From Candidatus Eiseniibacteriota bacterium (GTDB taxonomy: Bacteria; Eisenbacteria; RBG-16-71-46; CAZAMP01): a stretch of 64,000 bases of DNA. Of this stretch, positions 32,375-64,000 are shown in pieces (position 1 is the first letter of the stretch; every line of letters begins with the position of its first letter). The notes under the pieces are model-generated. The model saw only the letters and a program-made list of their open reading frames with translations, was not told the origin of the DNA and did no database searches. Location: contig OZ245046.1 in the NCBI GenBank assembly GCA_965224245.1, forward strand, positions 5,280,001-5,344,000, written 5' to 3'. The position numbers were made by a program, and so were the translations under genes.

Positions 32375-32376
32375 CG

Positions 32377-37799: not shown

Positions 37800-40700
37800 T
37801 CAGCCGGCGGGAGACGCCTCGAAGTACACCGTGGCCAGGGGTGGCAGATCGAACCGGAGCGCGTTCGGGTGCCCGTGCACCGGCGTCTCGGTGCTCTCCA
37901 CGCCGTCCAGCACGCCGACGCCGCTGCCTCCGTAGCGTTCGGCGTCGCTGTTCAGGAGCTGGCGCCAGCGTCCCGCCCGGGGTACGCCCAGCGAGAAGTC
38001 CCGGCGCACCACCGGCGTGAAGTTCGAGACCACGAGCACGATGCCGTCACCGCCGGCGTCCCTGCGCAGGAACGAGTACGCGCTCCGATCCCGATCGTGG
38101 CAGTCGATCCACTCGAACCCCGTCCCCGGCGAGCAGTCCGACGTGTGAAGGGCGGGCACGGTGCGATAGATCGCGTTCAGATCGCGGAGCCAGCGCGAGA
38201 GTCCCGCGTGGGCCGGCATGTCGGAGACGACCCAGTCGAGCTCGGACTCGTGGTTCCACTCCTGCCACTGCCCGAACTCCGCGCCCATGAACAAGAGCTT
38301 CTTTCCGGTCTGGCCGTACATGTAACCGTAGAGCGCGCGCAGGGTCGCGAACTGCTTCCACCAGTCGCCGGGCATCTTCGAGAGCAGCGACCGCTTTCCG
38401 TGCACGACCTCGTCGTGCGACAGCGCCAGAAGAAAACGCTCGGAACCGGCATAGATGCCCCGGAACGTGAGCTTGTCGTGGTTGCCGCCCCTGAACAGCG
38501 GATCGAGCGCCACGTACTCGAGGGTGTCGTTCATCCACCCCATGTCCCACTTGTAGTCGAAGCCGAGCCCCCCTTCGTGAACCGGCGCGCTGATCCTGGG
38601 CCACGAGGTGGACTCCTCGGCGATGCGAAGCGCGCCCGGATGGCTCGACCCGATCGCGTCGTTCAGCTGCTTCAGGAACTCGATCGCCTCCAGATTCTCG
38701 CGGCCCCCGTGGCGGTTGGCGACCCACTCGCCCTCGTTGCGGGAGTAGTCGAGGTACAGCATCGACGCCACCGCATCCACGCGGATCCCGTCGACGTGAT
38801 AGCGCTCGAGCCAAAGGGTCGCGCTCGAGATCAGGAACGCCCGAACCTCGGGACGCCCGTAGTTGAAGATGTGGGTCTTCCAGTCCGGGTGGAAGCCCTG
38901 GCGGGGATCGGCGTGCTCGAACAGGTGGGTCCCGTCGAAGTAGCCCAGTCCGTGTCCGTCCGTGGGGAAGTGCGAGGGCACCCAGTCCAGGATGACGCCG
39001 ATGCCGTGGCGGTGCAGCTCGTCCACGAGGAACATGAAGTCCTCGGGAGACCCGAACCGGCTCGTGGGAGCGAAGTACCCGGTGGTCTGATATCCCCAGG
39101 ATCCGTCGAAGGGATGCTCGGTGATCGGCATCAGCTCGACGTGGGTGAAGCCGAGGCGCGAGAGATAGCGCGGCAGCGCGTCGGCCAGCTCGCGGTACGT
39201 GAAGGGGCGCCCCTCGGCGTGCCGACGCCAGGAACCGAGGTGCATCTCGTAGATCGCGATCGGCGCGTCCGGTGACTGGCGCTCGGCGCGCGACGCCATC
39301 CATTCGGCGTCACCCCACTCGTACGCGACCTCGTGCACGACGGATGCCGTCCGGGGCGGGATCTCCGCGCGGCTCGCGAACGGATCGGCCTTCGTGCCCT
39401 CGTGACCGCCGACCCGGGAGATGATCCGGTACTTGTAGACCGCGCCCTCGGCCGCCTCGCGAACGAAGCCCGCCCAGACGCCCGAGGCTCCCACCGGCTT
39501 CAGCGGGTGGGCGGTGGGACTCCAGCCGTTGAAGGACCCGATCACGTGTACCGAGCGCGCCGCGGGCGCCCAGACCGCGAAGTGCACACCCTTCTCGTCG
39601 CCGTCGGTGACGACGTGCGCACCGAGCTTCTCGAACAGACGGAAGTGTCGACCCTCGTTGAAGAGGTACACGTCATCGGGCGTCATCGCGACCTCGGCCC
39701 GCGAGCGGACCGTGACGCTCGCGCGCTCGGCCCGGGCACGCCCGGCGCCGGCGTGCTCGGCGCGGATGCCGCCGGCCCGCGCATCACGGATCGCCGCCAT
39801 GCAGCGCGCCGCACCCGGGTGCTGGGCGATCTCCTCCAGCGAGAGCGCCGCCACGTGACGCCAGTTGGGGTGGGCGTCGGTGGTGCCCGGGACGTTCTGC
39901 GCGCGCGTCTCGAGCCAGAGGTCCTCGAGCGACACCATCGTGATCTCGGCGGGTCGGCGTGCGATCTCGCGGAGCGTGCCCACGAGGAGATCCTCCGGCG
40001 TCGGCTCTCCTCCGACGTGGCCACGGAGCCGCAGCACGCGCTCGAGATCGCCGAGGGCCTGAACGCGCCTGGCGCGAGCCTCGGGCTCCTTCTCCGCGGG
40101 GAGCAGGCCCACCTCGACCCACGTCGTGATGTCACCGCCCTCGAGGAAGCGCGCGAACGGAGACATGTCGTGCGTGTTCAGGCTCGTGACGGATTTCGGT
40201 GGACGATCCTCGAAGGCCGATACGGCATCCCGCTCCAGCTCGCCCTGCACGACGTGCATGCGCAGGATGTGATGCCGGGCGAGACGTTCGCGAACGCCGC
40301 CGGCCACGGTGCCGAGATCCTCACCGATCAGGATCGTGTCGTGCCGGACCGACTCGATGCAGAGAATCGCGTAGAGCTCGTCGAACGGCATGCGCACGTA
40401 GCCGCCGGACTCTCCCGGCATCCCCGACGGGATCCAGTACTGGCGATGCAGTCCCAGCGCGTGATCGATCCTGAGCGCGCCGGCACGCCGGCAGTGGTGT
40501 CGGATGAACGCGATCACGTGCTCGTGACCGTGGTGCCGCGACACGTCCGGTCGGATCGGGGGCAGGCCCCAGTCCTGCCCCGACGGGGCCAGCGGATCGG
40601 GCGGCGCCCCGACCGCAGTGTTCATCGCGAAGAGGTCGCCCTCTCGCCACGTGTCGAAGCTGTCGGCGTGCACGCCGATCGGGAGGTCCAGGTACAGCCC

Positions 40701-41879
40701 GGGGCCGTGCGCGGAGAGCCGATCGGCGCACGCGGCGAGCTGCTCGTCCGCGATCCACTGCACGTACTGGTGGAGACGGAACGCATCCTCGTCGTAGCCA
40801 TCCGGTGTGAGCGCGCCGAACCGGGCCTCGTGGGACCACGCCGACCAGCCGCACTTCTCGCGTTCGCCGGCCGCACGAAACGCGGCATAGTCGTCGAGCA
40901 TCGGACGGGACGCGCGAAACGCCTCGAACTCCGCGCGGCGCGGCGAGTCGCCCGAGAAGAAGCCCTTGCTGAGGCGCTTCAGTACGGTTCGCATCAGCGT
41001 CATCTGGGTGCGTGGATCGGTCCGGTCGCCGCTCCGCAGCCTGTCGAACGCATGCCGGATGCGTTTGCCTTCGAGGATGCGCTGGGCGGCGCGGTTCGTC
41101 GCGAGCTCGGGGATCCGTTCCAGGTCGACGTGGAGCTCGTTCCAGAACAGCCGGCTCACGGGCGCGTAGGGACTGATCTCGTACGGCTCGTCCAGGAACG
41201 CGGGCAACAGCGGAAGCGTTCCGACCAATCCGGCGCCGTAGCCGGCCGCCCAGTCCCCGAGGGCCGCGAGGTCGCCGAAGCAGCCGGTGCCGTGGGAGCG
41301 CTCGGAGTGGAGCGCGTACAGGGGAACGAACACGCCCCACGCGCCGAACGCGCCGTCGCCGGAGCCGTGCGCGGGGCGGTACGCATGCTCTGGCGCGGAG
41401 AAGACGCGACAGACCACCGGCTCGCCGCCGAGCTCCAGGCGGAGCTCGTGATATCCGATCGGCAGGCCTCCCGGGAGGGTGAGCCGGAGGCGCACGTACG
41501 GTACGCCGCCGACCTCGTAGGCCCGGACCTTCGGCAACGTGACGAGATCGACGTCCAGCGGGCGTTCCTCGCCCGACTCCAGCTCCAGCATCCCGACCAC
41601 GCGACCGGTCGCCATCCGGGCCGGCATGCGCAGGGAGACCGACACCGGACCGCCGTTCCACGCGACCGCGATCGGGTCGAGCGTCTCGGTGGCCAGCCGG
41701 CGCACGCGCTCGTCGAGCGCGCGTTCGACGCCCTCGCTCGGGGGAGAGCCCCGGAGTGCTCCGATCAGCGCCTCCAGCGTGTCCGGCGCAGCCGAGACGG
41801 TCTTGCCGAGCACGTCGGTGTACTCGGTGAGAATGCCGTGCAGCCGAGCCAGTCGGCGCAACGCGTGGCTGACCGCCAC
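37800..41879 (-). CDS. malQ-glgB: Fused 4-alpha-glucanotransferase (GH77, MalQ) - 1,4-alpha-glucan branching enzyme (CBM48+GH13_9, GlgB)
   Basis: MalQ: WGVFVPLY, SPYAPVSRLF, YLDLPIG, GAPPD..GQDWG, LRIDH, IGEDLG, THD. GlgB: FAVWAP, IYEMHLGSW, SWGYQ, DWVPSHF, DGIRVDAV, IAEES, LSHDEVVHGK. Confidence 0.95.
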   Translation of the reverse strand: MAVSHALRRLARLHGILTEYTDVLGKTVSAAPDTLEALIGALRGSPPSEGVERALDERVRRLATETLDPIAVAWNGGPVSVSLRMPARMATGRVVGMLELESGEERPLDVDLVTLPKVRAYEVGGVPYVRLRLTLPGGLPIGYHELRLELGGEPVVCRVFSAPEHAYRPAHGSGDGAFGAWGVFVPLYALHSERSHGTGCFGDLAALGDWAAGYGAGLVGTLPLLPAFLDEPYEISPYAPVSRLFWNELHVDLERIPELATNRAAQRILEGKRIRHAFDRLRSGDRTDPRTQMTLMRTVLKRLSKGFFSGDSPRRAEFEAFRASRPMLDDYAAFRAAGEREKCGWSAWSHEARFGALTPDGYDEDAFRLHQYVQWIADEQLAACADRLSAHGPGLYLDLPIGVHADSFDTWREGDLFAMNTAVGAPPDPLAPSGQDWGLPPIRPDVSRHHGHEHVIAFIRHHCRRAGALRIDHALGLHRQYWIPSGMPGESGGYVRMPFDELYAILCIESVRHDTILIGEDLGTVAGGVRERLARHHILRMHVVQGELERDAVSAFEDRPPKSVTSLNTHDMSPFARFLEGGDITTWVEVGLLPAEKEPEARARRVQALGDLERVLRLRGHVGGEPTPEDLLVGTLREIARRPAEITMVSLEDLWLETRAQNVPGTTDAHPNWRHVAALSLEEIAQHPGAARCMAAIRDARAGGIRAEHAGAGRARAERASVTVRSRAEVAMTPDDVYLFNEGRHFRLFEKLGAHVVTDGDEKGVHFAVWAPAARSVHVIGSFNGWSPTAHPLKPVGASGVWAGFVREAAEGAVYKYRIISRVGGHEGTKADPFASRAEIPPRTASVVHEVAYEWGDAEWMASRAERQSPDAPIAIYEMHLGSWRRHAEGRPFTYRELADALPRYLSRLGFTHVELMPITEHPFDGSWGYQTTGYFAPTSRFGSPEDFMFLVDELHRHGIGVILDWVPSHFPTDGHGLGYFDGTHLFEHADPRQGFHPDWKTHIFNYGRPEVRAFLISSATLWLERYHVDGIRVDAVASMLYLDYSRNEGEWVANRHGGRENLEAIEFLKQLNDAIGSSHPGALRIAEESTSWPRISAPVHEGGLGFDYKWDMGWMNDTLEYVALDPLFRGGNHDKLTFRGIYAGSERFLLALSHDEVVHGKRSLLSKMPGDWWKQFATLRALYGYMYGQTGKKLLFMGAEFGQWQEWNHESELDWVVSDMPAHAGLSRWLRDLNAIYRTVPALHTSDCSPGTGFEWIDCHDRDRSAYSFLRRDAGGDGIVLVVSNFTPVVRRDFSLGVPRAGRWRQLLNSDAERYGGSGVGVLDGVESTETPVHGHPNALRFDLPPLATVYFEASPAG

Positions 41880-41995: not shown

Positions 41996-44470
41996 CTACC
42001 GACCGGCCACGACGATCCGATCCGACACGACGTTCGCGCCGCTCGCCGCGCGCACCCAGTACACGCCCGGTACGACGGGCTCGCCCCGGGTCGTCAGGTC
42101 CCATGTGAACGTGTGAGACCCCGCGGGTCGGCGGCCGTCGGCGAGAAGCGCCACCTCGCGACCCGTGGCGTCGTGCAGGGACATCCGCAGCGGTCCCGCC
42201 GCCTCGAGCTCGATCGCGACCGCCACGAGCCGGGACGCCGGTCGGGGACGCACCGACGCGATCCGGACGGGCCCGCCGCCGAGGTCCGGCGTGGCCGTGT
42301 CCGGCGCGTGCAGCGAGGCGGGCTCTCCCAGGACGACGATGCCGTGCGAGGGCAGCCCGATCGACACCGACTGCGAGAACCCGTCCACCGGGATCGCGTC
42401 GCTCGCGAACGTGCCGGGGTTCTCCGGACCGTCGCCGCCATACGTCGCCGCCTCGCTGTTGAGACGTTCGGCCCAGTCGCCCGGTGACGGAACGCCGACG
42501 CGATAGCTCGCGAAGTCGGTGTTGGAGACGTTCACGACGACCACGAACGCACCCTCGCCGTCGAAGCGCCGGAACGCGAGCACGTTGCCCGACTCGTTCA
42601 GGTGGAACACCTGCCAGGCGGCGCTGGCCCGGAAGGCGCTCTCGGAACGGCGAAGCGCGATCGCGTCCTGGAAGAACCGGAACACGTCGGCATAGGTGGT
42701 CTTCTTCGACCAGTCGATGCGATTGCCGGTGTCGGTGCCGAAGTCCGTGTCCTCCAGCCACTCGGCGCCCTGCAGCATCGCGGGCACCCCGGGCGCGAAC
42801 AGCACGAGCCCCTGTGCGAGCTTGGTGCGTCCCTTCGCGTACTCGTCGTCGTGCGGGAACGTCGGATCGATCGCCTTCACGATCCGTCCGCCACCGCTCG
42901 TCGGCCAGGCCTCGTCGTGCAGCTCGAGGTACGTGGTGACCGAGCTGCCGTCCAGGTACGTGCCACCGCCGTTGATGATGTCGCGGATCTTCCACATCTC
43001 GGGATCACCGAAGGCCGCGTCGAGGAGCTCCTCTCGCAGCCGATCGGTGAACGCGTCGAAGTACTGGCTGTCGAAGCCGGCGCCTCCGAGCGACGTGGGA
43101 CGCGTGATCCACGGGTCGTCGGGAAGCTGCTCGGCGATGACGATCTTGTCGATCCAGCGGTTGTCGACCTCGTCGTTCAGCCGCTGCATCAGCGACCACC
43201 CCGCCGCCTCCTGCGGGGGGATGGTCATGTAGGCGGTCGCGTCCATCCGGAAGCCGTCGACGCGATACTCGTCCAGCCACAGGTGGGCGCTGTGGGCGTA
43301 GTAGTCGCGGACCTCGTCGGCGTCGAAGTCGGCCTGCGCGCCCCACGGCGTGTCCACCTGCGGCGTGTCGAAGTAGATCTGAGAGCCGTCGTAGAACCAC
43401 AGATAGTTGTCGTCGAACGAGAAGTGGTTCCAGACCACGTCCAGGAGCACGGCGATGCCCTCGGCGTGGAGCGCGTCCACCATCGCCTTGAAGTCGTCGG
43501 GCGAGCCGTACTTCCACTCGGGTGCCCAGGCCGTGATCGGGTTGTAGCCGGCCGACAGGTCCCCGGGGAACTCCGTGATCGGGTTCAGCATCACCGCGGT
43601 CACGCCGAGCTCTCCCAGGTGCCCGGCGCGCGCGGCCACGTCGACGTAGCGAGACGGAAACGGCGTGGCGCCCATCGGGTCGTTGCGACCGGCGAACGTG
43701 CCCACGTGCAGCTGGTAGATGATGAGGTCGTCCAGCGCCGGCGTGACGAAGTCGTTCGTGACCCAGGCGTATCCGAAGGGATCGACGATGATCGAGTTGA
43801 GGTTGTCCGATGGATCCAGCGCGCGGGCCCGCGCATCGCTGTTCCAGACCGATCCGTTGAAGAAGTACTTGTACGCGTGTCCCGCCACCGCCGCGGCCAC
43901 GCGGCCGATGAAGTGCTCACCCACCTTGGGCAGGAGATCCGCAGTGGACCAGCCGTTGAACTCGCCCCGCACGTGGACGCTGGTGCGGGTGGGCGCCCAG
44001 ACCCGGAACACGGTGCCGCCCTCCGGCAGCGGCGTGGCGCCGACCGGCGCGTGCGAGAGCGTCGAGAAGTCCAGCACGAACCCGCCGTCCACCGGAGGGG
44101 CGTCGGACATGCCGGTCACGCTGTAGTAGTCGACGTCGGTGCCGTCGATGACCTCGAAGTAGTACGACAGGGACGACGCCGCGGTCGCCGGGATCGTGGC
44201 CGACCAGATCGCATACGCCCCGCGCGCCTCCAGGTACGACGCCGGAATGCTCGCGACCGACCCGTCGTCCACGATGACGTTCACCGCGGAAAGATCGAAG
44301 TGATACGCGGCGAGGCGCACGTCGAACGCCTGCCCGTCGACGGGGCAGATCGGGCGGCGATCCTGCCATCCGACGTGCGAGATGCCGTTCCACTGGACGT
44401 CGTCGTCGGCGGAGACGGTCGTGGCGAGGGTGGCGATCAGGGCTGCCGTGACCGGGATGGTGGATCGCAT
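41996..44470 (-). CDS. Secreted GH13 alpha-amylase-family enzyme (CBM48 + GH13) with C-terminal FlgD/T9SS-like Ig domain
   Basis: Signal peptide; VFRVWAP..GEFNGW; IYQLHVGTF, DVVWNH, DGFRMDA, IAE, ELHDE; CTD LHDATGREV..TWD..PGVYWVR. Confidence 0.9.
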   Translation of the reverse strand: MRSTIPVTAALIATLATTVSADDDVQWNGISHVGWQDRRPICPVDGQAFDVRLAAYHFDLSAVNVIVDDGSVASIPASYLEARGAYAIWSATIPATAASSLSYYFEVIDGTDVDYYSVTGMSDAPPVDGGFVLDFSTLSHAPVGATPLPEGGTVFRVWAPTRTSVHVRGEFNGWSTADLLPKVGEHFIGRVAAAVAGHAYKYFFNGSVWNSDARARALDPSDNLNSIIVDPFGYAWVTNDFVTPALDDLIIYQLHVGTFAGRNDPMGATPFPSRYVDVAARAGHLGELGVTAVMLNPITEFPGDLSAGYNPITAWAPEWKYGSPDDFKAMVDALHAEGIAVLLDVVWNHFSFDDNYLWFYDGSQIYFDTPQVDTPWGAQADFDADEVRDYYAHSAHLWLDEYRVDGFRMDATAYMTIPPQEAAGWSLMQRLNDEVDNRWIDKIVIAEQLPDDPWITRPTSLGGAGFDSQYFDAFTDRLREELLDAAFGDPEMWKIRDIINGGGTYLDGSSVTTYLELHDEAWPTSGGGRIVKAIDPTFPHDDEYAKGRTKLAQGLVLFAPGVPAMLQGAEWLEDTDFGTDTGNRIDWSKKTTYADVFRFFQDAIALRRSESAFRASAAWQVFHLNESGNVLAFRRFDGEGAFVVVVNVSNTDFASYRVGVPSPGDWAERLNSEAATYGGDGPENPGTFASDAIPVDGFSQSVSIGLPSHGIVVLGEPASLHAPDTATPDLGGGPVRIASVRPRPASRLVAVAIELEAAGPLRMSLHDATGREVALLADGRRPAGSHTFTWDLTTRGEPVVPGVYWVRAASGANVVSDRIVVAGR

Positions 44471-44690: not shown

Positions 44691-45884
44691 ATCGCTAACG
44701 TGCTCTTTTGCTGGGAGTTAGGTGGCGGCTGGGGCCACATCGGCCGCGTGTCCCCCCTGGCGTGCTGGCTGGCCGAGGCCGGCCACTCGGTGGACTTCGT
44801 GAGTCGCGACGTCGTCCGTGCCACCGCGGTCGGGATGCCGGGGCGCGTGCTGCCCGCGCCGAGGGTGTCCACGCCGCGTGAGCGCCAGATCCCCAGTCCG
44901 ATGAACTACGCCGAGGTGCTCTCGAACCTCGGATGGGACAGCGAGGCGTCACTGTCGGGGCTCGTTCGTGCCTGGCGCGATCTGATCCTCGTGTGCGGCG
45001 CCGACCTCGTGGTCGTGGACCACGCACCGGGAGCCGCGCTGGCGGCCCGCACGCTGCGATGCCCGTTCCTGTCGGTGAGCGCCGGTTTTGCGGTGCCGCC
45101 GAACGTCGCCCAGCTGCCGCTCCTGCGCGACGGCGTGCCCGAGCCGCGCGTCGCGGCCGCCCACGCGGCCGAGCGCGGGCTCCTGGAGCGGATCAACCGC
45201 ATCGGCGAGACGCACGGGCTCGCACCGCTCACGTCGGTGGGCGCGCTGTTCCAGGACGCGGAGTCCGTGCTGCTGACGACGTTCGCCGAGCTCGACCACT
45301 ACCCCGATCGCCCCGGGTCTCTCGAGTACGTCGGCAGCTGGACCACCGGGTCGGGCATGCAGCCGACCTGGCCGGCCGGGGACGGCCCGAAGGTGTTCGC
45401 CTACCTGAGCGGGCTCCCGGTGAGCCGGTACGTGCTGAAGCGGCTCGGACGGCGGGACATTCCCACGGTCGCGTACGTCGACGACGAGCCGGTCACCGGC
45501 GGTGGCAGCGTGACCGTCCTCCCCGTGCCCGCCGACCTGGCGATGGCCGCGCGGGAGTGCGACGTGGCGATCACGAACGCGGGGCACGGCGTGGCCACCG
45601 CGATGCTGCGGGCGGGCAAGCCACTGGTGATGATCCCACGGGTTCTCGAGCAGCAGCTCCTCGCGCGACGGATCCGGGCGCTCGGCGCCGGTGAGACGGT
45701 ACCGCTCGAACAGCCGCGGACGTTCGAGGACGTGTTCGCCACGGTCGTCGGGGACGACGTGTACCGGCGCGCCGCGGAGGCGTTCTCCGAGCGCTACGCC
45801 GACTGGATCGACGAGGATCGGGCCGTGCACGTGGCCGATGCCATCGGAGCGGTGGCTCGCCGGGTCGCCGGCGGAGTGGCCTGA
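44691..45884 (+). CDS. GT-B glycosyltransferase (GT1/GT28-like)
   Basis: ANVLFCWELGGGWGHIGR, ADLVVVDHAP, CDVAITNAGHG..GKPLVMIP..EQ. Start uncertain: ATC 44691 or GTG 44700. Confidence 0.8.
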   Translation: MANVLFCWELGGGWGHIGRVSPLACWLAEAGHSVDFVSRDVVRATAVGMPGRVLPAPRVSTPRERQIPSPMNYAEVLSNLGWDSEASLSGLVRAWRDLILVCGADLVVVDHAPGAALAARTLRCPFLSVSAGFAVPPNVAQLPLLRDGVPEPRVAAAHAAERGLLERINRIGETHGLAPLTSVGALFQDAESVLLTTFAELDHYPDRPGSLEYVGSWTTGSGMQPTWPAGDGPKVFAYLSGLPVSRYVLKRLGRRDIPTVAYVDDEPVTGGGSVTVLPVPADLAMAARECDVAITNAGHGVATAMLRAGKPLVMIPRVLEQQLLARRIRALGAGETVPLEQPRTFEDVFATVVGDDVYRRAAEAFSERYADWIDEDRAVHVADAIGAVARRVAGGVA

Positions 45885-45911: not shown

Positions 45912-46739
45912 TCAGCCCTTGACGCCGCCGAGCGTGAGCCCAGAGACCAGGAAACGATTCAGCACCAGGAACAGCACGACCACGGGGACGCTCACGAGCA
46001 GGCTCGCCGCCGCATAGTTCGCCCACTCGGTCTGGAAGCTCCCGGCCAGGTTGGCCAGCCCCAGGGGCAGCGTGTAGAGCGCCTGCTTGTTCAGGATCAC
46101 GCGCGCCACGATGTACTCCGACCATCCCGACATGAACGAGAAGAGCCCGGTGATCACCAGCGCCGGGCGCGCCAGCGGCAGGACCACACGCACGAACGCA
46201 CCGATCTGGCTCGTGCCGTCCACGCGAGCCGCCTCCTCCAGCTCGACCGGGATCGTGTCGTAGTAGCCCTTCATCGTCCACACGCAGAACGGCAGCGCGG
46301 TGGCGGTGTACGCGACGACGATGCCGAGCATCGTGTCCACGAGCCCGAGGCGGCTCATCAGCACGTACAGCGGCAGCAGGAGCATCGTCGCCGGGAACAT
46401 CTGGGTGACCAGGAGCCCCACCATGCCCGCGCCGTGACCCCGGAACCGGAACCGCGAGAACGCGTAGCCGGCGGTCGACGCCAGGGTCACCCCGAGGAGG
46501 GTGACCGACCCCGCGGCCACCGTCGAGTTCCGGAGCCAGAGGAAGAAGTCCTTCTCGAAGAGGACCTTCCGGTAGGCGACCAGGGTCGCGTCCTCGGGGA
46601 TCAGCCGGAGCGACGTCGAGTAGAGCGCGTCTCCGGGTCGGAGCGAGATGCCGAGCACCACCAGGATCGGGTAGATGATCGCGAACGTGAGCGCGGCGAG
46701 CACGACGTGAAAGAGGAGTCGCCGGAGAACGTGCGTCAT
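45912..46739 (-). CDS. malG: Maltose/maltodextrin ABC transporter permease
   Basis: WLRNS, AGYAFSRFRF, QMFP, MKGYYDTIP.ELEEAARVDG (EAA loop), LVSGLTLGGVKG. Confidence 0.93.
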   Translation of the reverse strand: MTHVLRRLLFHVVLAALTFAIIYPILVVLGISLRPGDALYSTSLRLIPEDATLVAYRKVLFEKDFFLWLRNSTVAAGSVTLLGVTLASTAGYAFSRFRFRGHGAGMVGLLVTQMFPATMLLLPLYVLMSRLGLVDTMLGIVVAYTATALPFCVWTMKGYYDTIPVELEEAARVDGTSQIGAFVRVVLPLARPALVITGLFSFMSGWSEYIVARVILNKQALYTLPLGLANLAGSFQTEWANYAAASLLVSVPVVVLFLVLNRFLVSGLTLGGVKG

Positions 46740-51331: not shown

Positions 51332-51360
51332 CCCCGCGTCCCTCGGGACGCGGGGTTTTT
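51332..51360 (+). terminator. Rho-independent terminator
   Basis: CCCCGCGTCC-CTCG-GGACGCGGGG-TTTTT. Confidence 0.9.
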
Positions 51361-51466
51361 CGTTTGACGCGCTCGAGCGATGGGCTCAACGTGGGACCGT
51401 TCGTGGTTCGATCGGACGGCCGAGGTCGAACGCGACACTCCCCTGCCCAGGGACGAGGGAGGTGCC

Positions 51467-53836: not shown

Positions 53837-53839
53837 TGA

Positions 53840-54247: not shown

Positions 54248-54284
54248 GGTCACCTCCTTCGAACGGCGCGCCGGCGGCGCGCGT

Positions 54285-56492: not shown

Positions 56493-58102
56493 CAGAAGTT
56501 TCCCTTCACGATCAGCTTGACGATGTTCCGGTTGTCGGCGCTGCCGGCCAGGTCGCCGTCGTCGACGGGGTTCGGCGTGTCGCCGATCCAGCCCGGTCCA
56601 TACTCTAGAAACGCCTCCATGTTGCCGCGCGGGCGGTACTGGAGCTGCGTGAACAGTCCCTTCCGGAGGCGGGCGGGGTCGTTTCCGAACGTGTAGCGCC
56701 CGTAGACCTTGAGTCGCGGGGTGAGGTTGACGCTGCTCTCGACCGACGCGAGCGCCTTCTCGTCGACGCTGTCGAAGTCCTTGATCTTGCCCTGGATCCG
56801 CATCCAGGCCAGGCGGCTCTCCACCTGCACCTCGGCGAAGAGGTCCCGGTTCTGCGTGACGTCCGGGAACTCCGGCTCCGAGAGGTTCCGGTCGATTCGA
56901 TTCGAGTAGTAGAACTTCGTGGTGAAGCCGTTCACGTACTCGACGTACATCTCGGCGTAGAGCTCGGTGAACTTCCGCCGGTCGAAGACGAATCGCTCGT
57001 AGTTGGTGTAGTTGAGCGCCAGCGTGATCGCGCGCTCGGGCACCAGGTACCACGAGTTGAGCCAGATGCCCTGCTCGCCCTGCGCGCGCTGGTCGTCGAG
57101 GGGGCTCGAGAGACGCCCGAGCGGGTTCACGAACTCCGGCCCGTAGTACCAGAAGGACGGCGCGAGGTTGTAGTAGCCGAACGTCGGGTGACCGACGCGA
57201 AGCGCGCGCAGCTCGCCCACCAGCGCGAGGTCGTCCGGCAGCCAGGGATCGAGGCGCTTCAGGCTCGCACTTCCGGGGTCGAAGCCGTCGTCACCCTCGC
57301 TCTGGAATCCCAGGCGCGTCGCGAACTCCAGCGACAGGTCGGTGACGCCGAACTGGTAGCGCATGTCGCCCGCCACCAGATCGAACGCGTTGCTGGGCTC
57401 GCTGGCCTGCGCCTCGACCTTGCGGTTGTACGTCATGCCCAGGCGAAGGCGGTTCCCGAGGAACGGGCGGCGCAGCCGAACGACGTGCGCGTCGTCGGTG
57501 CTGACCGGCGCGAACGCCTCGGCTCCGGCGCCCGGGTTGGACTGCCCGCTGAAGTCGCTGGAGAGGAGCGTCATGTTGGTGCCCCCGAGGCCCCAGAGGT
57601 CCAGACGTGCGCCCTGCGCGTTGTCGGAGTCCTTCAGGTTGTTGGGCTCGACCACGCGGATGAGGTGATTCTCGACCCAGAAGCGATCCTGCCGCTGGAA
57701 GAGGTACAGGTCGGCTCCCCGCGTGGTGCGATCGATCCGGTAGCGCAGATGGCTCTCGCGGTACTGGAACATCGGCCGATTCTGATCGTTGGATCCCGGG
57801 TTCCAGTCGGCCTCGAACTTGACGAACGCCTCCACGCCGGTGGCCGGTGCCGAGAACAGGCGAAACTGCGCGCCGTTGTAGGTGTCGGAGTTGTTGGAGT
57901 CGAAGTCCCACTCGTTGCTGCGGTCCTCCTTCCGCGCGTCGATCTGGATCTGGTACTCGCCCTCGAGCTTGGTGATCGCCGAGGCGTCGATGGCGACGCC
58001 CCCGATCAGCGCGACGGCCAGCGCGCGCGTCGCCAGGCGCGTCGCGGCGTGGCCGGGACGGTCGGGGCGGGCGCGCTCGGCGCGGCGGACTCGGGCTACC
58101 AT
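56492..58102 (-). CDS. Predicted outer-membrane beta-barrel protein of unknown family
   Basis: Signal peptide ..IDASA; alternating strands throughout; ends VKLIVKGNF. Its stop overlaps the downstream start, and its start overlaps the upstream gene's end. Confidence 0.7.
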   Translation of the reverse strand: MVARVRRAERARPDRPGHAATRLATRALAVALIGGVAIDASAITKLEGEYQIQIDARKEDRSNEWDFDSNNSDTYNGAQFRLFSAPATGVEAFVKFEADWNPGSNDQNRPMFQYRESHLRYRIDRTTRGADLYLFQRQDRFWVENHLIRVVEPNNLKDSDNAQGARLDLWGLGGTNMTLLSSDFSGQSNPGAGAEAFAPVSTDDAHVVRLRRPFLGNRLRLGMTYNRKVEAQASEPSNAFDLVAGDMRYQFGVTDLSLEFATRLGFQSEGDDGFDPGSASLKRLDPWLPDDLALVGELRALRVGHPTFGYYNLAPSFWYYGPEFVNPLGRLSSPLDDQRAQGEQGIWLNSWYLVPERAITLALNYTNYERFVFDRRKFTELYAEMYVEYVNGFTTKFYYSNRIDRNLSEPEFPDVTQNRDLFAEVQVESRLAWMRIQGKIKDFDSVDEKALASVESSVNLTPRLKVYGRYTFGNDPARLRKGLFTQLQYRPRGNMEAFLEYGPGWIGDTPNPVDDGDLAGSADNRNIVKLIVKGNF

Positions 58103-59058
58103 CTCGGCTCTCCGAACGGCACTCGGAGCGACAGCTCGTACGAGATCCCGAGGTCGTCGTTCGTCACGAACGCGACGTCGACCAGAAAGCGCTCGGCGGC
58201 CAGGCCGACGCCTCCGGCGAAGTCCCCGCCCGAGACCCCCGCGCGGAGCGCGAACACGTCGTAGAAGGACACCTCGGCTCCCGTGTTGAAGAGCCAGTCC
58301 CCGCGCGCGTCCTGGTTGAGGCTCAGCGCGAACACCGACTCCGGATGCCACCGATACGAGAGGCTGACGTCGTGGATGCGCTCGAGCCGCGTGCGACCGC
58401 CGCCGTCCACGAAGTCGAACGTGGGCTCGATCACGTTGCGGACGACGTAGCCCACGGCCACCGTGGGGGACAGGTTCACCAGCGCGGACAGATCCGCCGT
58501 GAGCTTGCGCTGGGAGCCGTAATCGATCTCGCCGGCGTCGGCGTCGTAGCTGACGCTGGCGAGCTTGACGTTGGCCCCGATCGCCAGCGCGTAGCTCCCG
58601 GTGTAGGCCACGACGTCGCGCGCGACGCCGAACGTGACCATGTCCTCGGAGACGACGTTCTCGACCCCGGTGTGATGCCACGCGACCGAGACCGACGTCC
58701 GGTCGCGGTGATGGACGGCGCTCGCGAACTGGGTACCCAGGTTCTCCACGACGTAGGGCCGGCTGTGCACGAAGAGGATCTCGCTCCGGCGCATGGTGAC
58801 CAGGGCGGCGGTGTTCCACGACACGGCCGACCCATCGTCGGCGATGGCCGAGTAGGCGCGCCCGATGGCGGTCCCTCGTGCCCCGGCGAGCATGCGCTCG
58901 AAGTGGGCGCCCACCGGCTGCGGCGCGAGGGCGCTCAGGGCGACGGCGGCGAACGCCCAGACGAGGATCGAAGCGTCCGGTGACGTGACCCTTGCCCCGG
59001 CGTGGCGCGAGAGCGCGGCGCGCGCCGCCGCCCGAGCGCGGTTCGCCCGCCCGCTCAT
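58096..59058 (-). CDS. PorV/PorQ-like (FadL-type) beta-barrel
   Basis: GARGTAIGRAYSAIADDGSAVSWNTAAL matches the PorV-type GAR..GMG.A..A...D..A..WNPA.L N-terminus; GAE..ALRAG..GGVG; C-terminal LSLRVPF. Confidence 0.78.
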   Translation of the reverse strand: MSGRANRARAAARAALSRHAGARVTSPDASILVWAFAAVALSALAPQPVGAHFERMLAGARGTAIGRAYSAIADDGSAVSWNTAALVTMRRSEILFVHSRPYVVENLGTQFASAVHHRDRTSVSVAWHHTGVENVVSEDMVTFGVARDVVAYTGSYALAIGANVKLASVSYDADAGEIDYGSQRKLTADLSALVNLSPTVAVGYVVRNVIEPTFDFVDGGGRTRLERIHDVSLSYRWHPESVFALSLNQDARGDWLFNTGAEVSFYDVFALRAGVSGGDFAGGVGLAAERFLVDVAFVTNDDLGISYELSLRVPFGEPRW

Positions 59059-60311
59059 CTCACCACCGTGAACGCACGCTTCGCGCGGCTCGGGCCGACT
59101 TCCTCGACCACGCTCAGGATGTAGATACCCCCGGGAACCGGCCGATCGGCGCCGTCACGTCCATCCCAGCGATCCTTGGTCGGGTCGGTGGGAGAGGTGG
59201 CCGGCCGGACGTCCTCGACGTAGAGCGAGCGAACGACCTGGCCGCGCATGTCGTACACGCGGGCGGTCAGGCTCACCTCGCGGAAGTCCTCGGACGTAGA
59301 CGGGTCGAGACGGATCTCGAACTCGAGGTCTCGCGACTCCTCGGGCGAGACGATCGGGTTGGTGATGTGGAGGCTCGTGACGTCGAACTTGATGCCCTCG
59401 ATGGGTGGACGCCGCTTGAAGCGGATGCGCTCGCGGACCGAGGCGCCGAAGTCCGGGTAGCCCGGGACGCCATCGCCGTCCACGGCGTCGTCCGGGTCGG
59501 CGTCCCCGTCCAGCGGAAGGATCGCGTAGTTGTCGATCGTGACCAGCGCGGCGCTGTCCACCGAGTGTCCGTTGAAGTTGTCCGGTGCGGAGTCGGGGCC
59601 TCCGGTGCCGTCGGCGCCGGCGGTGACCACCGCGGCGAGCTTCAGGCGGTCCATGCCGTCGGGGACTCGCCACACGTCGGCGTCCAGCGCCGGCACGAAG
59701 TCCTGCTCGGACTGACCGAAGAAGACCAGCGACCACGGAATCGCGAACTCCATCGCACGATCGGTCGAGCTGCCGTCGAAGGTCGCCACACCTCGGAACT
59801 GCGTGGACGCGACCTGCACGACCTGATTCACGCCGGTGACCGTCCACATCTGCGGCGCGCCGTTCCGGTCCCAGGTGGCGACGAAGAAGTCGGGAGCGAA
59901 GTCACTGGAGAAGACGAAGTTACGGCGCCAGGCATTGACCTCGGTCATGCCGTCGAGACCGGCGACGCCGTCGGCCGAGGGCACCTCGTCGGCGACGTCC
60001 ACGAACAGGATCGTGTTGTTGTCGAAGATGAAGCCGTCAACGGCCAGGTAGAGCGAGTCGGCGTCCCAGGTGACCTTGATCTGGTTGACGTCGTTGAAGG
60101 GCCCCCACTCGGAGTCGTTCAGCGACTCCTCGAGCGTGTTCAGCTCCTCGTTGACGCCGAACACGACCTCGTCGGCCTCGAAGTCGGACGTGAAGCCGTC
60201 GACCTCGAGTCGACCGCCGCGGTCGAGCTCGGTGATGGCGTCGGCCCGTGGCGCGATCGCGCACAGCAAGAGCGCGAGACCGGCGCGGACGACCGGAGCC
60301 TCCAGATACAT
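59055..60311 (-). CDS. Secreted acidic beta-sandwich protein with C-terminal FlgD/T9SS-like domain
   Basis: Signal peptide; VDG, VTWDADSLYLAV, MEFAIPWS (CBM9/DOMON-like); CTD NPIVSP..VYDMRGQVV..WDGRD..PGGIYIL. Confidence 0.72.
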   Translation of the reverse strand: MYLEAPVVRAGLALLLCAIAPRADAITELDRGGRLEVDGFTSDFEADEVVFGVNEELNTLEESLNDSEWGPFNDVNQIKVTWDADSLYLAVDGFIFDNNTILFVDVADEVPSADGVAGLDGMTEVNAWRRNFVFSSDFAPDFFVATWDRNGAPQMWTVTGVNQVVQVASTQFRGVATFDGSSTDRAMEFAIPWSLVFFGQSEQDFVPALDADVWRVPDGMDRLKLAAVVTAGADGTGGPDSAPDNFNGHSVDSAALVTIDNYAILPLDGDADPDDAVDGDGVPGYPDFGASVRERIRFKRRPPIEGIKFDVTSLHITNPIVSPEESRDLEFEIRLDPSTSEDFREVSLTARVYDMRGQVVRSLYVEDVRPATSPTDPTKDRWDGRDGADRPVPGGIYILSVVEEVGPSRAKRAFTVVR

Positions 60312-60410
60312 CTGTCGCGATTTCCCTCGTTGGGGGCCGGCGACTCTGGGCTAGTATCAGGCCCGAAAACTTACCACACTCCCGAGTCGATTTGCCCAGT
60401 GAGGACGCTC

Positions 60411-63400
60411 ATGATTTCCCGACGTTCCACGATGGCGAGCGGACGCGCTCTCGAGCGGCTCGCCGTTGTGGTGGTGGCGCTGTCGATGCTGGCGCCGATG
60501 GCCAGGACCGCCGATGCCGAGACGGTCACGTTCCGATGCGAGGCGCCGGGCGCGAACGCGGTCTTCCTGGCGGGGTCGTTCAACGAGTGGTCGCCAACCG
60601 CGCAGGCCATGTCCGACGCGGACGGCGACGGTGTCTTCGAGGTCGCGCTCGACCTCGAGACCGGGGCGTACCCCTACAAGTTCGTGATCGACGGGACCTG
60701 GACCACCGATGAGACGGCCGCCGGGTTCGAGGCCGACCCGTACGGCGGACGGAACTCGATCGTGTACGTCGGCATGGAGCCTCCGGCGCCCGAAGCGGGC
60801 GGGGGCCGGGCGGCATCGCCGACGGGAGCCGCCACCGCCGCCGCGCCCGCGAGCTCGTCCAGGACGCACGACGTCACGTTCCGGTACGAGCCCGTCATCG
60901 GGGGCGAGCGGGACGTCTTCGTCGCCGGGACGTTCAACGGCTGGGTCACCGATCAGGATCGACTCACCGACGCCGATGCGGACGGCGTCTTCACCCTCAC
61001 GATGCCGCTGGCCGAGGGGCGCCACGACTACAAGTTCGTCGTGGACGGCAACTGGATGACCGACGAGAACGCGGTCGAGTTCGCCGACGACGGCTTCGGG
61101 GGCCGGAACTCCGTGCTGATCGTCGACGCCCAGGGCCAGGTGACCCCCGAGCGAGCGCAGGCCGCTCCGGCGGCGGCCGACGGTGCGCTCTACGACGTCA
61201 CGTTCACCCACGTCGCACCCGCCGCGCGCGAGGCGTTCCTCGCCGGCAGCTTCAACGACTGGTCGACCACCGCCACGCCGATGACGCGCTCGGACGACGG
61301 CACGTTCTCGACCACGCTCGTGCTGTCCCCGGGCTCGTATCCTTACAAGTTCGTCGTGGACGGCACCTGGACCACCGACGAGACGGCCGACCAGTTCGTG
61401 GACGACGGCTTCGGGGGCCGGAACTCGGTCATCGTGGTCGACGAGCGGTTCACGTCGGTGCCGCTGGAGCGGGGGGACGGGCTCGTCTACGAGGGCGACA
61501 TCCAGCACACGGGATCGATCGCCGAGTGCAACATGGTCTCGGACACCGAGGTCGTGTTCCGCGCGCGCGCGTATCGCAACGACGTGGACGGCGTCTCGCT
61601 GATGTGCCGCCGGAGCGTGGAGGGGCCGTGGGACGAGCGTCCGATGACGCGTTTCTCCAGCGACGCCGCGTTCGACTACTTCGAGATCACCTACAGCCGG
61701 CCCGACCCGGTCGACGTGGTGAACTACGGCTTCCTGTACCGGGATGGGGACGTGACCCGCTGGCTGGGTCCGCGCGGGTTCGAGGCCGCCGGCGTCACCG
61801 GAACCGCGTTTCTGTTCAACGCCGAGACCGCGGTCGTGCTGGATCCGCCCGGCTGGGTGCGCGACGGCGTCTTCTACCAGATCTTCCCCGATCGCTTCCG
61901 GAACGGCGACAGGAAGAACGATCAGAAGTTCGAGGAGTGGTACTACGAGGGACGCACGCGATTGCCGCGGGTCGGCCCGCAGAACGGCGAGTACTACCAC
62001 TTCGTGAAGGACTGGGACGACTTCTCCGGTCTGGCCGAGAGCCCCTATCGCTCGGACGGGAAGCCCGACTACTTCTCGTTCTACGGCGGCGACATCCAGG
62101 GGGTCATGGACGAGCTCGACTACCTGGCCGACCTCGGCATCACGATCATCTACTTCAACCCGCTGAACGAGGCCCGGTCGAATCACAAGTACGACGCCAC
62201 CGACTACATGACGCTCGACCCCCACTTTGCCGACCCCGAGCTGTTCGCCCGGTTCGTGGCCGAGGCGCACGAGCGGGGGATCCGGATCGTCGTCGACACC
62301 GTGTTCAATCACACCGGCGACACGCACTGGGCGTTTCAGGACGCGGTGAAGAAGGGGCGCGAGTCGGAGTACTGGGACTGGTACGAGTTCAAGCGCTGGC
62401 CGCTTCCCGAGCAGGGCGAGTACGACGCCTCCAGCTACTACGCGTGCTGGTGGGGCTTCGGATCGCTGCCCGACCTCAACTACGACCTCGTGCTCCCCGC
62501 CGATCGCGAGCACACGGTGTCGGACGTCTCGCAGGCCACGCCCAACCAGCCCGTGGTCGACCATCTGCTCGAGGTGGCGACGTTCTGGATCCAGGACATG
62601 GACATCGACGGCTTCCGTCTCGACGTTCCGAACGAGGTGCCGTTCTGGTTCTGGAAGATCTTCTGCGCCGAGGTCCGGCGTCTGAAGTCCGACGTGTACA
62701 TCGTGTGCGAGATCTGGGGAGATGCCACGACCTGGATCACGCCCGACCTCGTGGACGCGACCATGAACTACCGCTACTTCCGCGACCCGGTCCTGCACTG
62801 GATCGGACAGGGACAGGGCAACGCGGTCTCGTTCGATCGCGAGCTGGCGCCCGGCCGCGTCGTGTACGCGCCGCAGTCGCAGCAGGTCATGATGAACCTC
62901 ATCGACAGCCACGACACGGTGCGCTTCCGCACCCAGGCCAGGGGCGACGCGCGGCGGCTGAAGCTCGCGGCGCTGTTCCAGATGACGTACGTCGGAGCGC
63001 CGCACATCTACTACGGCGACGAGGTGGCCATGGAGGGCGGCGCCGACCCCGACTGCCGCCGTCCGTTCCGCTGGAGCTGGACCGAGGATCCGCTGCGCCG
63101 CGACGTGCACGATCACTACGCGAAGCTGATCGACATCCGCAAGCAATGGCGCGCGCTTCGCCGGGGCACGTTCACGCCGCTGGTCGCGTCCGGGAACACG
63201 TACGCGTATCTCCGCCAGGACACCGAGGGATCGGTGGTGGTGGTGCTGAACAACGGCGAGAAGGCAGTCGAGGCCGCAGTGCCGCTGGACGGCGATCGGG
63301 CGGGGGCCGTGTTCGTGGATGCCTTTACAGGAGAACGAGTTAACGCCCAGGGAGGGGAGCTCTCGGTGGCCGTGCCGCCGGTCAGCGGACGGATCTTCAC

Positions 63401-63425
63401 GCTCGCCCATCCGAGCGGGTCCTGA
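60411..63425 (+). CDS. Exported neopullulanase/cyclomaltodextrinase-type GH13 with three N-terminal CBM48 modules
   Basis: Signal peptide; 3x LAG(S/T)FN.W..YKFV.DG.W.TD..GGRNS; VFYQIFPDRF, GGDIQG, SNHKYD, DTVFNH, DGFRLDV, CEIW, DSHDT, YYGDE..DPDCRR. Confidence 0.93.
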   Translation: MISRRSTMASGRALERLAVVVVALSMLAPMARTADAETVTFRCEAPGANAVFLAGSFNEWSPTAQAMSDADGDGVFEVALDLETGAYPYKFVIDGTWTTDETAAGFEADPYGGRNSIVYVGMEPPAPEAGGGRAASPTGAATAAAPASSSRTHDVTFRYEPVIGGERDVFVAGTFNGWVTDQDRLTDADADGVFTLTMPLAEGRHDYKFVVDGNWMTDENAVEFADDGFGGRNSVLIVDAQGQVTPERAQAAPAAADGALYDVTFTHVAPAAREAFLAGSFNDWSTTATPMTRSDDGTFSTTLVLSPGSYPYKFVVDGTWTTDETADQFVDDGFGGRNSVIVVDERFTSVPLERGDGLVYEGDIQHTGSIAECNMVSDTEVVFRARAYRNDVDGVSLMCRRSVEGPWDERPMTRFSSDAAFDYFEITYSRPDPVDVVNYGFLYRDGDVTRWLGPRGFEAAGVTGTAFLFNAETAVVLDPPGWVRDGVFYQIFPDRFRNGDRKNDQKFEEWYYEGRTRLPRVGPQNGEYYHFVKDWDDFSGLAESPYRSDGKPDYFSFYGGDIQGVMDELDYLADLGITIIYFNPLNEARSNHKYDATDYMTLDPHFADPELFARFVAEAHERGIRIVVDTVFNHTGDTHWAFQDAVKKGRESEYWDWYEFKRWPLPEQGEYDASSYYACWWGFGSLPDLNYDLVLPADREHTVSDVSQATPNQPVVDHLLEVATFWIQDMDIDGFRLDVPNEVPFWFWKIFCAEVRRLKSDVYIVCEIWGDATTWITPDLVDATMNYRYFRDPVLHWIGQGQGNAVSFDRELAPGRVVYAPQSQQVMMNLIDSHDTVRFRTQARGDARRLKLAALFQMTYVGAPHIYYGDEVAMEGGADPDCRRPFRWSWTEDPLRRDVHDHYAKLIDIRKQWRALRRGTFTPLVASGNTYAYLRQDTEGSVVVVLNNGEKAVEAAVPLDGDRAGAVFVDAFTGERVNAQGGELSVAVPPVSGRIFTLAHPSGS

Positions 63426-63446
63426 CGCTGGAAAACATGCCAAGAA

Positions 63447-63455: not shown

Positions 63456-63548
63456 GTCCGGGTAACGACGATGCCCAGGCAGCCTCGCCACAGAAGGGGC
63501 AGCACCCGCGGCCACCGCCACGGGGTGCGAAACGCAGGAGGACTGACG

Positions 63549-64000
63549 ATGAAGAAGTCGTTCGAGCTGGCGCTGGCGGTCGCCCTGGTCGCGATGATCG
63601 CGACCTCCGCCGACGCGTTCTACGCTCGAGGCGCGTACTACGCGGATTGGGCCGCCGACGCCGGCAACGAGCTTCGCGACGACGGGACGAACGGCGACAA
63701 GGTGGCCGGCGACGGGATCTTCTCGGGTCTGATCACCGCCGACGTGGTGGCCGGGGACTACGAGTTCAAGGTCGCCAACGCGGACTGGTCGATCTCGTAC
63801 CCCAACAGCAACGTGTGGATCACCACCACCGAGGACAACCAGCAGATCCTGTTCACGTTCGACACGAACACGTACGACGACGGGTGGTTCCCGGCCACGA
63901 ACATCGTCTGGAGCGACGCGCTTCGTCTCGGCTCGAGCTGGGAGATCACCGGCGGAGCTTCCGAGATCGGATCGTGGACGCCGGGCGATGGCGCGGCGGC
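63549..64000 (+). CDS. Secreted carbohydrate-binding-module protein (N-terminal part only; runs off the window)
   Basis: Not in the ORF track. My translation: MKKSFELALAVALVAMIATSADAFYARG..LRDDGTNGDKVAGDGIFS..GDYEFKVANADW..EIGSWTP; AGGAGG RBS. Confidence 0.8.
   Translation, partial: MKKSFELALAVALVAMIATSADAFYARGAYYADWAADAGNELRDDGTNGDKVAGDGIFSGLITADVVAGDYEFKVANADWSISYPNSNVWITTTEDNQQILFTFDTNTYDDGWFPATNIVWSDALRLGSSWEITGGASEIGSWTPGDGAA

Follow-up and report, generated by a model that had tools for sequence, protein, structure and literature searches.

A conserved α-glucan utilisation locus of Candidatus Eisenbacteria with two large predicted outer-membrane barrels and no match to SusCD or LamB

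Import of large glycans across the outer membrane is known to proceed through TonB-dependent transporters, in SusCD-type complexes or otherwise, and through such specific porins as LamB, CymA and ChiP. By which gate, then, would large α-glucans enter a cell whose starch locus shows neither SusCD nor LamB? The question is raised by positions 37800..64000 of a 64,000-nucleotide stretch of a Candidatus Eiseniibacteriota bacterium genome (assembly GCA_965224245.1, contig OZ245046.1, positions 5,280,001 to 5,344,000; this whole stretch is hereafter the window), where an initial annotation, made from the letters alone, had proposed an α-glucan utilisation locus without a TonB-dependent receptor, SusD or LamB. 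With gene boundaries corrected, the gene content of this region is that of a genuine starch- and glycogen-utilisation cluster, whose conserved core runs from 41996 to past the window end at 64000. We propose, at a probability of roughly one in two, that the locus is a SusCD- and LamB-independent apparatus for the capture and import of α-glucans (starch, glycogen, pullulan). The parts list, the predicted folds and locations of the products and the tight joint conservation of the genes form the firm part of this model; what appears to be new is an undescribed outer-membrane module within a glycan-utilisation locus of otherwise familiar type.

The centre of the locus is a block of six consecutive, tightly packed minus-strand genes (gA to gF, 52451..60311), with overlaps of 4, 7 and 1 nt at the gA/gB, gB/gC and gC/gD junctions and gaps of 31 and 3 nt at gD/gE and gE/gF. 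The first gene, gA (59055..60311), encodes a 418-aa protein with a signal peptide, a CBM9-like body (CBM, carbohydrate-binding module) and a C-terminal immunoglobulin (Ig)-like sorting domain of the kind used by a type IX secretion system (T9SS). It is followed by gB (58096..59058), predicted to encode a 320-aa divergent outer-membrane barrel of the PorV/PorQ family (FadL-like); by gC (56492..58102), a predicted outer-membrane β-barrel of 536 aa outside any family; and by gD (54285..56492), a 735-aa protein with a signal peptide, an N-terminal CBM48 and a barrel likewise without a family. The last two genes encode a 137-aa CBM48 lipoprotein (gE, 53840..54253) and a 461-aa probable lipoprotein with X25-like and CarboxypepD_reg Ig-like repeats (gF, 52451..53836). 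What had been called a six-gene outer-membrane operon does consist of six genes, but three of their products are predicted barrels, two are probably lipoproteins and the remaining one is a T9SS cargo. On the far side of a 99-bp interval (60312..60410), gG (60411..63425, plus strand) points away from gA and encodes a 1,004-aa glycoside hydrolase of family 13 (GH13) with a signal peptide and three N-terminal CBM48 modules; the 5' part of gH, for a small secreted X25 starch-binding protein, follows on the same strand (63549..64000), and the window ends inside it.

Because long spurious open reading frames (ORFs) are common at the G+C content of the window (~69%), gene models were set by third-position GC framing together with translations and Pfam and NCBIfam family scans, and the same framing and scans bore out the gene content first listed for the region. 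The true start of gG was placed at 60411 rather than at the ORF start, 58992, because the upstream part of that ORF overlaps gA on the opposite strand. The 99-bp interval is likely a control region shared by gA and gG; a simple scan detected no sigma-70-like promoter in it. Promoter and terminator signals in the window were at background level except for one good terminator (51332..51355, 10-bp stem and T tail), which belongs to the gene for a 689-aa protein described below.

A scan with the gC profile, taking one genome per species, identified 78 related loci (best identity 57%), of which 38 are labelled Eisenbacteria/Eiseniibacteriota, 18 Cloacimonadota (including Stygibacter), 4 Gemmatimonadota, 2 Neomarinimicrobiota and 1 Krumholzibacteriia, the other 15 being labelled only 'bacterium'. 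Synteny was assessed by tblastn with 16 window proteins, and counts were restricted to loci with room on the relevant side of gC. Upstream, gA was present in 65 of 65 loci and gB in 61, and the four loci without a gB match carry in the gB position an ORF that also matches the PorV/PorQ model NF033709. Downstream, gE was found in 63 of 63 loci and gD in 62, with gD matches split in the single miss (L045). Of the loci that leave room to either side (56), 52 keep all five genes from gA to gE collinear; the four misses arise because matches are split (L045) or because a diverged PorV-like ORF occupies the gB position. A gF-like or CarboxypepD_reg ORF lies 3' of gE in 52/63 loci. The synteny search in related phyla that had been called for thus supports a single conserved unit.

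This unit is tied to α-glucan degradation and import. In 34 of the related loci the sequence extends 9 kb or more to each side (hereafter long loci). Among these, a GH13 of gG type (orthologue coverage of at least 80%) lies within 10 kb in 24 and the importer genes malEFG in 26; 33 of the 34 have one or the other and 17 have both, which upholds the proposal of one conserved α-glucan locus without SusC, SusD or LamB. A relative of the 689-aa protein was found in 21 of the 34 long loci, and relatives of the secreted, tagged GH13 described below occur downstream of gG in four loci (L020, L024, L032, L050). The 192 neighbourhood ORFs of 180 aa or more that stayed without assignment formed 87 clusters, one representative of each being scanned against Pfam. 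Recurrent neighbours include LacI regulators, large proteins with C-terminal-domain (CTD) sorting tags, a CBM20 esterase, a pullulanase, GH57, GH15 and phosphorylase genes, and an ABC-2 exporter fusion (ABC, ATP-binding cassette). This last, an ABC ATPase fused to an ABC-2 permease and a CAAX-protease-like protein, lies upstream of gA in 23 loci (including L012, L014, L018 and L021; L014:3403-6291), and a LacI-family regulator lies directly upstream of the operon in seven, where it is a candidate regulator of the system; neither is present in the window. By its synteny, the locus is typical of Candidatus Eisenbacteria and common to Cloacimonadota and Neomarinimicrobiota.

The known outer-membrane gates were searched for both around and within the operon. 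None of the ORFs scanned across the whole window matched TonB_dep_Rec, Plug, SusD or LamB in Pfam, in agreement with the absences first claimed. Among the 87 cluster representatives from the 78 neighbourhoods there was no SusD and one TonB-dependent receptor, a singleton at L007:3278-7573 (CarboxypepD_reg, Plug and barrel) followed by a 440-aa ORF outside any family; L007 is the only long locus lacking both gG and malEFG, and its receptor may be an unrelated neighbour or part of a hybrid arrangement. Where relatives share the divergent gA|gG layout, the positions beyond gG are taken by gH, by a gene for a pullulanase, an esterase or a large CTD protein, or by housekeeping genes without relation to the locus, and susCD was never seen there. 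The gene 3' of gD encodes the CBM48 lipoprotein gE and not a member of the SusD family. A full-text literature search, with subscription journals outside its scope, returned no description of this operon or of a CBM48-fused outer-membrane barrel.

The two large barrels themselves were tested as possible LamB or TonB-dependent transporter homologues, and no such relationship emerged in family scans or profile alignments. TonB_dep_Rec was matched neither by gC and gD nor by 50 gC relatives and 67 relatives of the gD barrel; Plug (PF07715) was absent from gC, gD and the 67 gD relatives, although no search was aimed at a TonB-box motif, and neither family appears among the precomputed Pfam domains listed for 35 gD homologue clusters. 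LamB was matched neither by gC nor by its 50 relatives. Profile alignment with hhalign against a genuine TonB-dependent receptor (L007:3278-6208) gave probabilities of 0.3% for gD and 0.04% for gC, and Pfam scans placed neither protein in any barrel family.

For gC, neither Pfam nor NCBIfam returned a match, and the single sequence found nothing useful among PDB chains; 3 of the 50 family members match Porin_4 weakly. An AlphaFold2 (AF2) model built from the family alignment (pLDDT 85.5, pTM 0.79) places 24 strands by DSSP in a barrel that begins at residue 43, and the protein ends in KGNF. The best Foldseek matches in the PDB are the usher pores FimD and PapC (TM-score 0.43-0.50, 8-9% identity), followed by LptD (0.38-0.40), with LamB (1mal_A) at 0.28/0.34 and 9% identity. 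The ushers, also with 24 strands, and LptD are thus the closest matches in size and shape, and gC has the inferred strand number of the ushers; at 8-10% identity, however, gC lacks the usher plug and N- and C-terminal domains as well as the LptD N-terminal domain, and no pilus or lipopolysaccharide genes lie near it. At least 145 homologue clusters were found and, on weak evidence, no fused or longer forms. Assignment of gC to the AlgE-type porins (Alginate_exp, PF13372) was rejected, as none of the 50 members matches the family and hhalign against the Alginate_exp protein of the window gave 0.2%. That protein, an AlgE-like outer-membrane barrel encoded at 20099..21463 (plus strand) and unrelated to gC by hhalign, is a separate feature of the window.

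The second barrel, gD, carries its carbohydrate-binding module in the same chain. An N-terminal CBM48/AMPK1_CBM domain (about residues 42-124, E=2.7e-13) is the only part with a Pfam or NCBIfam family, and in the AF2 model (family alignment; pLDDT 85.5, pTM 0.76) it leads straight into barrel strand 1 at residue 145. About 24 strands can be counted from the DSSP string, against 22 in the TonB-dependent transporter fold; on the same reading the last loop, of 55 residues, is external and holds three helices (688-723), and the protein ends in IVRY. A word-indexed search returned 35 homologue clusters, 33 of which contain CBM48/AMPK1_CBM, the two without it being shorter proteins (460-503 aa). The homologues of both barrels are mostly nameless or 'hypothetical', a few being called 'glycogen-binding domain-containing protein'. 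When 1.84 billion representatives were searched by HMMER with a profile of the gD barrel alone, 250 relatives emerged at E<=0.001, 172 at 1e-10 and 76 at 1e-30. From the 150 listed among these 250, 67 of the more distant full-length relatives were scanned for domains, and all 67 carry an N-terminal starch-binding module (CBM48/AMPK1_CBM in 66, CBM20 in 1), some in two or three copies. The gD barrel therefore looks dedicated to α-glucan, being always fused to a starch-binding module among the 67 distant relatives. Between gC and gD, hhalign found no more than a faint likeness at the C-terminus (probability 21%, E=0.001, 72 columns), too little to call them clear paralogues.

The orientation of the barrels bears on where the gD module acts. 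Because long loops alternate with turns of 2-4 residues in the DSSP strings, both termini of gC would be periplasmic, as would the N-terminus of gD and with it the CBM48. On that side of the membrane the proposed model also places gE, itself an AMPK1_CBM protein (Pfam, E=1.3e-7) with the highest mean column identity in the operon (56%). In an alignment of 42 gE sequences the cysteine at position 24 is at least 90% conserved and K31, R33, L34 and P37 are invariant. A linker of consensus LNFIKRRLPPP immediately follows the lipidated cysteine; it varies less than much of the gE CBM48 and has the look of a segment that docks onto a partner. A complex prediction for gD (40-735) and gE (24-137), each entered as an alignment and run without controls, gave a score of 0.00 and a mark of 0.32 and speaks neither for nor against binding.

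At the cell surface, gA and gB resemble a T9SS cargo and its barrel. The FlgD_ig match of gA is weak in the single sequence (residues 347-403, 17.3 bits), which gives one chance-level match among PDB chains, while the orthologue profile finds the Ig domain of FlgD (E=2e-4) and the CTD region of PorU (E=0.02); the atlas clusters closest to gA hold carbohydrate-binding proteins and CBM9 plus Por_Secre_tail proteins (scores 0.89-0.97). We read gA as a probable CBM9-like T9SS cargo whose tag emerges at profile level. For gB, the single sequence found nothing useful among PDB chains and scored 41.4 bits (E=1.3e-10) against NF033709, whose curated cutoff is 90; 48 of 48 orthologues match the same model (best E=2.6e-20), with all reported scores below the cutoff, and the family profile matches PorV (6h3i_F) at E=1.9e-7 over its N-terminal region only. 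At profile level gB is, on these matches, a probable divergent member of the PorV/PorQ family. The order of a gene with a sorting domain followed by a PorV/PorQ-family gene recalls T9SS cargoes and their cognate barrels (PorV, PorQ-PorZ, PorP/SprF with cargo of type B), with the difference that gB reaches the curated cutoff of no T9SS model (41 bits where 90 are required) and that the putative pair sits in a carbohydrate-uptake operon outside Bacteroidota. In a study on the T9SS of Flavobacterium johnsoniae, cargo genes are described as genetically linked to cognate shuttle-barrel genes (PMC12618676).

Besides gA, T9SS-type CTD tags were found on two further proteins of the locus. In the secreted GH13 at 41996..44470 (minus strand, 824 aa), a signal peptide and a CBM48 are joined by a sorting domain of FlgD_ig type at the C-terminus (29.3 bits, cutoff 27); the protein matches Alpha-amylase and CBM_48 in Pfam and GlgB (E=2.4e-41) and TreZ (E=2e-37) in the PDB, and carries the catalytic motifs DVVWNH, GFRMD, IAEQ and LHDE, making it a putative surface enzyme of branching-enzyme/TreZ type. 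A T9SS tag and signal peptide on a GH13 of this normally cytoplasmic type are unusual. The 689-aa protein (49220..51289, plus strand) matches the sorting-tail model TIGR04183 (29.8 bits, cutoff 23) and FlgD_ig (E=1.4e-8) and is a predicted T9SS-tagged surface protein. It had been taken for a CBM protein, a name that did not hold: its body matched no CBM family and had no Pfam, NCBIfam or PDB support beyond the sorting tail. Assignment to a named CBM family was accordingly dropped, and starch-binding look-alikes in the atlas score at most 0.78 and serve as leads only. Starch-binding modules of the X25 type are found in gF and gH. In gF, CarboxypepD_reg matches two stretches (E=3e-21) and X25_BaPul_like scores E=1e-4; its N-terminus (SPRRRRAFLGL...GLGC) has a twin-arginine-like motif and then a lipobox-like cysteine with an acidic stretch (CDDAPD), which could reflect twin-arginine (Tat) export, surface exposure of the lipoprotein, or both. 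For gH, X25_BaPul_like scores E=2e-9 and a choice_anchor_X domain 43 bits, and complete orthologues of 286-334 aa carry X25 domains.

Among the enzymes and transporters behind the outer membrane, gG matches Alpha-amylase (E=6.6e-57), AMPK1_CBM in three stretches, Alpha-amylase_N, Malt_amylase_C and Neopullulanase-like_C, and in the PDB TVAII/neopullulanase (E=5e-113), SusA (E=2.5e-30) and SusG (about 1e-26). Judged by the motif definitions of GH13 regions I-IV, all four are intact (DTVFNH, GFRLDVPNE, EIWG, LIDSHD), and on these matches gG is a GH13 of neopullulanase/cyclomaltodextrinase type; because it has a signal peptide and no sorting tail, it is most simply read as periplasmic. The importer genes malG (45912..46739), malF (46736..47617) and malE (47617..48879), all on the minus strand, have MalG, MalF and MalE as their best NCBIfam matches, at 178, 179 and 143 bits (E=2.1e-52, 1.4e-52 and 1.2e-41) against equivalog cutoffs of 261, 392 and 291, and MalE has a lipobox-like LSC. 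They probably encode a maltodextrin-type ABC importer with a lipoprotein-type MalE and no ATPase gene at the locus, so that the lipoprotein-type importer first proposed stands in its MalE, MalF and MalG components and falls short of a malK. Enterobacterial LamB-MalEFGK systems share such an importer and a dedicated passage for maltodextrins through the outer membrane, which for the present locus is inferred; they differ in that no LamB is matched here, gC having about 24 strands against 18 in LamB, and in the predicted lipid anchor of MalE and the lack of malK at the locus.

At the edge of the locus, a minus-strand gene (37800..41879) encodes a 1,359-aa fusion of MalQ (GH77 with a MalQ_N domain) to a full GlgB (CBM48, GH13 and Alpha-amylase_C), with support from Glyco_hydro_77 (E=8e-88), NCBIfam GlgB (932 bits) and MalQ TIGR00217 (265 bits); its product is predicted to be cytoplasmic. 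Two further genes, one GT1-like (family 1 glycosyltransferase; 44700..45884) and one for an epimerase (51380..52414), lie inside the span of the locus.

On the proposed model, three proteins would reach the cell surface through the T9SS: the CBM48-GH13 enzyme (41996..44470), the 689-aa protein and the CBM9-like gA, the last being held there by its cognate PorV/PorQ-like barrel gB, encoded next door, and gF and gH would contribute their X25 modules. Surface cleavage would give large maltodextrins, which would pass the outer membrane through gC and/or gD, both 24-stranded; because these barrels have neither a plug domain nor a TonB-receptor signature, the sugars would move through them by diffusion or binding. 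Having reached the periplasm, the chain would be caught by CBM48 modules, at the gD N-terminus, on the lipoprotein gE and in the set of three on gG, and gG would trim it to maltose or short oligosaccharides. Lipoprotein MalE with MalFG would import these products with an ATPase encoded elsewhere, and the cytoplasmic MalQ-GlgB may process the imported sugars. We infer every transport step in this scheme, as well as its topology and the absence of energy coupling.

Several points weigh against this reading. Fold, location and synteny are the whole of the case for gC and gD as possible channels, all relatives are metagenome-assembled genomes, and the periplasmic placement of the gD CBM48 would follow from an argument of parity. 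A 24-strand barrel would be expected to require a gate, and none was identified in gC or gD; loops, or in gD the C-terminal helices (688-723), might fill the lumen. Three CBM48 modules are unusual on a periplasmic enzyme, and gG could leave by an unrecognised export route. Pfam scans of the locus found no ABC ATPase gene (malK). The MalQ-GlgB linkage is not conserved, with weak partial matches within 10 kb in 2 of the 78 loci, and the GT1-like gene and the epimerase had no tblastn match in any of them; the proposed feeding into glycogen was drawn from the MalQ-GlgB adjacency and is weakened accordingly. The window covers 64 kb of a 6.45-Mb contig, about 1% of the genome, and a TonB-dependent transporter, LamB or SusCD may lie elsewhere or just past 64000. 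Lastly, the top Foldseek matches of gD are TonB-dependent transporter barrels, though at TM-scores of 0.30-0.38.

An explanation that we consider unlikely is that the main task of gB, gC and gD is to fix proteins that bind or degrade starch to the cell surface, as a T9SS attachment module or 'amylosome', with the CBM48 of gD exposed on the outside much like an autotransporter passenger and oligosaccharides entering through unrelated porins or TonB-dependent transporters encoded elsewhere. The PorV/PorQ-like gB does come after the CTD-bearing cargo gene gA, three proteins of the locus bear T9SS tags, every part other than the barrels is a binder or an enzyme, and so small a share of the genome was seen. 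Classical autotransporters have an N-terminal passenger and then a C-terminal barrel, which is also the order of module and barrel in gD. Two extra 24-strand barrels, however, far exceed what anchoring needs, and loop-length parity would set the gD N-terminus in the periplasm rather than outside. The conserved periplasmic GH13 and malEFG, moreover, require a route that supplies large maltodextrins, and no alternative channel candidate recurs in the 78 loci.

It is quite improbable that gD is instead an extremely diverged, still energised SusC-like TonB-dependent transporter, in which a CBM48 has taken the place of the plug and N-terminal extension, with gE or gF as a partner of SusD/E/F type, so that the whole would be a cryptic variant of SusCD. 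Foldseek does return Fiu, OprC, FhuA and FecA as the best matches of gD (probability 1.00), and in the Sus system the gene order susC-susD-susE/F is the one mirrored by the barrel-lipoprotein-lipoprotein order of gD, gE and gF. These matches nonetheless combine low TM-scores with about 10% identity and root-mean-square deviations of 13-27 Å, and the PDB fold matches of gC and gD alike (TM at most 0.5) suggest a generic likeness of large barrels. The lack of TonB_dep_Rec and Plug in gD, its 67 distant relatives and the listed domains of the 35 clusters, the 0.3% hhalign probability against a genuine receptor and the count of about 24 rather than 22 strands all point the same way, and gE is a 113-residue CBM48, not a SusD of tetratricopeptide-repeat (TPR) type. 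The Bacteroides Sus (SusCDEFG with SusA/B) shares the general plan, with a surface amylase and starch binders, a barrel gene followed by lipoprotein genes, a periplasmic GH13 of neopullulanase type and an inner-membrane importer. It differs in having a SusC-type transporter and SusD, and in attaching its surface proteins mainly as lipoproteins, where T9SS tags and a PorV/PorQ-like barrel would serve here; the present locus, unlike Sus, has two 24-strand barrels outside any family, one fused to CBM48, and would import through an ABC system. The inner-membrane importer of Sus is a protein of major facilitator superfamily (MFS) type.

That the barrels export or assemble a cell-surface α-glucan (capsule- or glycogen-like), with the CBM48 modules as periplasmic polymer chaperones, is barely credible: a relative of gC bears the name 'Alginate expo...' in one database source, and a MalQ-GlgB fusion and a GT1-like gene lie nearby, but neither of these genes is conserved in related loci, the Alginate_exp comparisons of gC were negative (0/50 members; 0.2%), and what is conserved alongside the barrels is a set of hydrolases and an importer rather than synthases.

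Within the import model itself, a more specific version can be put forward tentatively, as a possibility that we hold to be doubtful. In it, gC and gD together with gE would form an outer-membrane glycan translocon of a new class. Two 24-strand barrels, without plugs and independent of TonB, would work with the periplasmic CBM48 modules (gD, gE and the gG array), which would act as a binding ratchet that pulls long, even branched, α-glucan inward; the module would be coupled to the PorV/PorQ-like anchor of a T9SS-delivered surface binder and would represent the ancestral starch system of several FCB-group candidate phyla. The description of the locus as a fourth design is not a strict count, since TonB-dependent maltodextrin transporters without SusD exist. 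One is MalA of Caulobacter, a canonical TonB-dependent transporter with a plug; the MalA type resembles the present locus in taking up maltodextrins through neither SusCD nor LamB and differs in its plug, gC and gD showing none of those signatures.

Three other features of the window lie outside the locus. A GH26-like protein, a cellulose-synthase-like glycosyltransferase of family GT2 and a TPR protein are encoded in a row at 7660..12067 (minus strand) and may form an exopolysaccharide synthesis module. At 28269..31697 (minus strand), a Ser/Thr protein kinase fused to HEAT/PBS-lyase repeats adjoins an FHA-domain protein, which suggests a signalling pair. An 871-aa protein of the sodium:solute symporter family (31753..34368, plus strand) has, from its predicted start, an N-terminal extension of about 280 residues before the SSF domain.

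The locus described here points to an α-glucan system that is conserved across little-studied phyla, in 78 species-level genomes or more, and in which two large barrels would replace the known gates. Should gC and gD prove to be channels, they would constitute a new transporter family and a new design principle, that of a carbohydrate-binding module fused to the barrel, and they would provide an annotation marker for starch use in genomes without SusCD as well as a clearer view of the carbon-cycling role of abundant uncultured lineages of soil, sediment and digesters. If the translocon version were true, these bacteria would practise 'selfish' polysaccharide uptake without SusCD or energy coupling.

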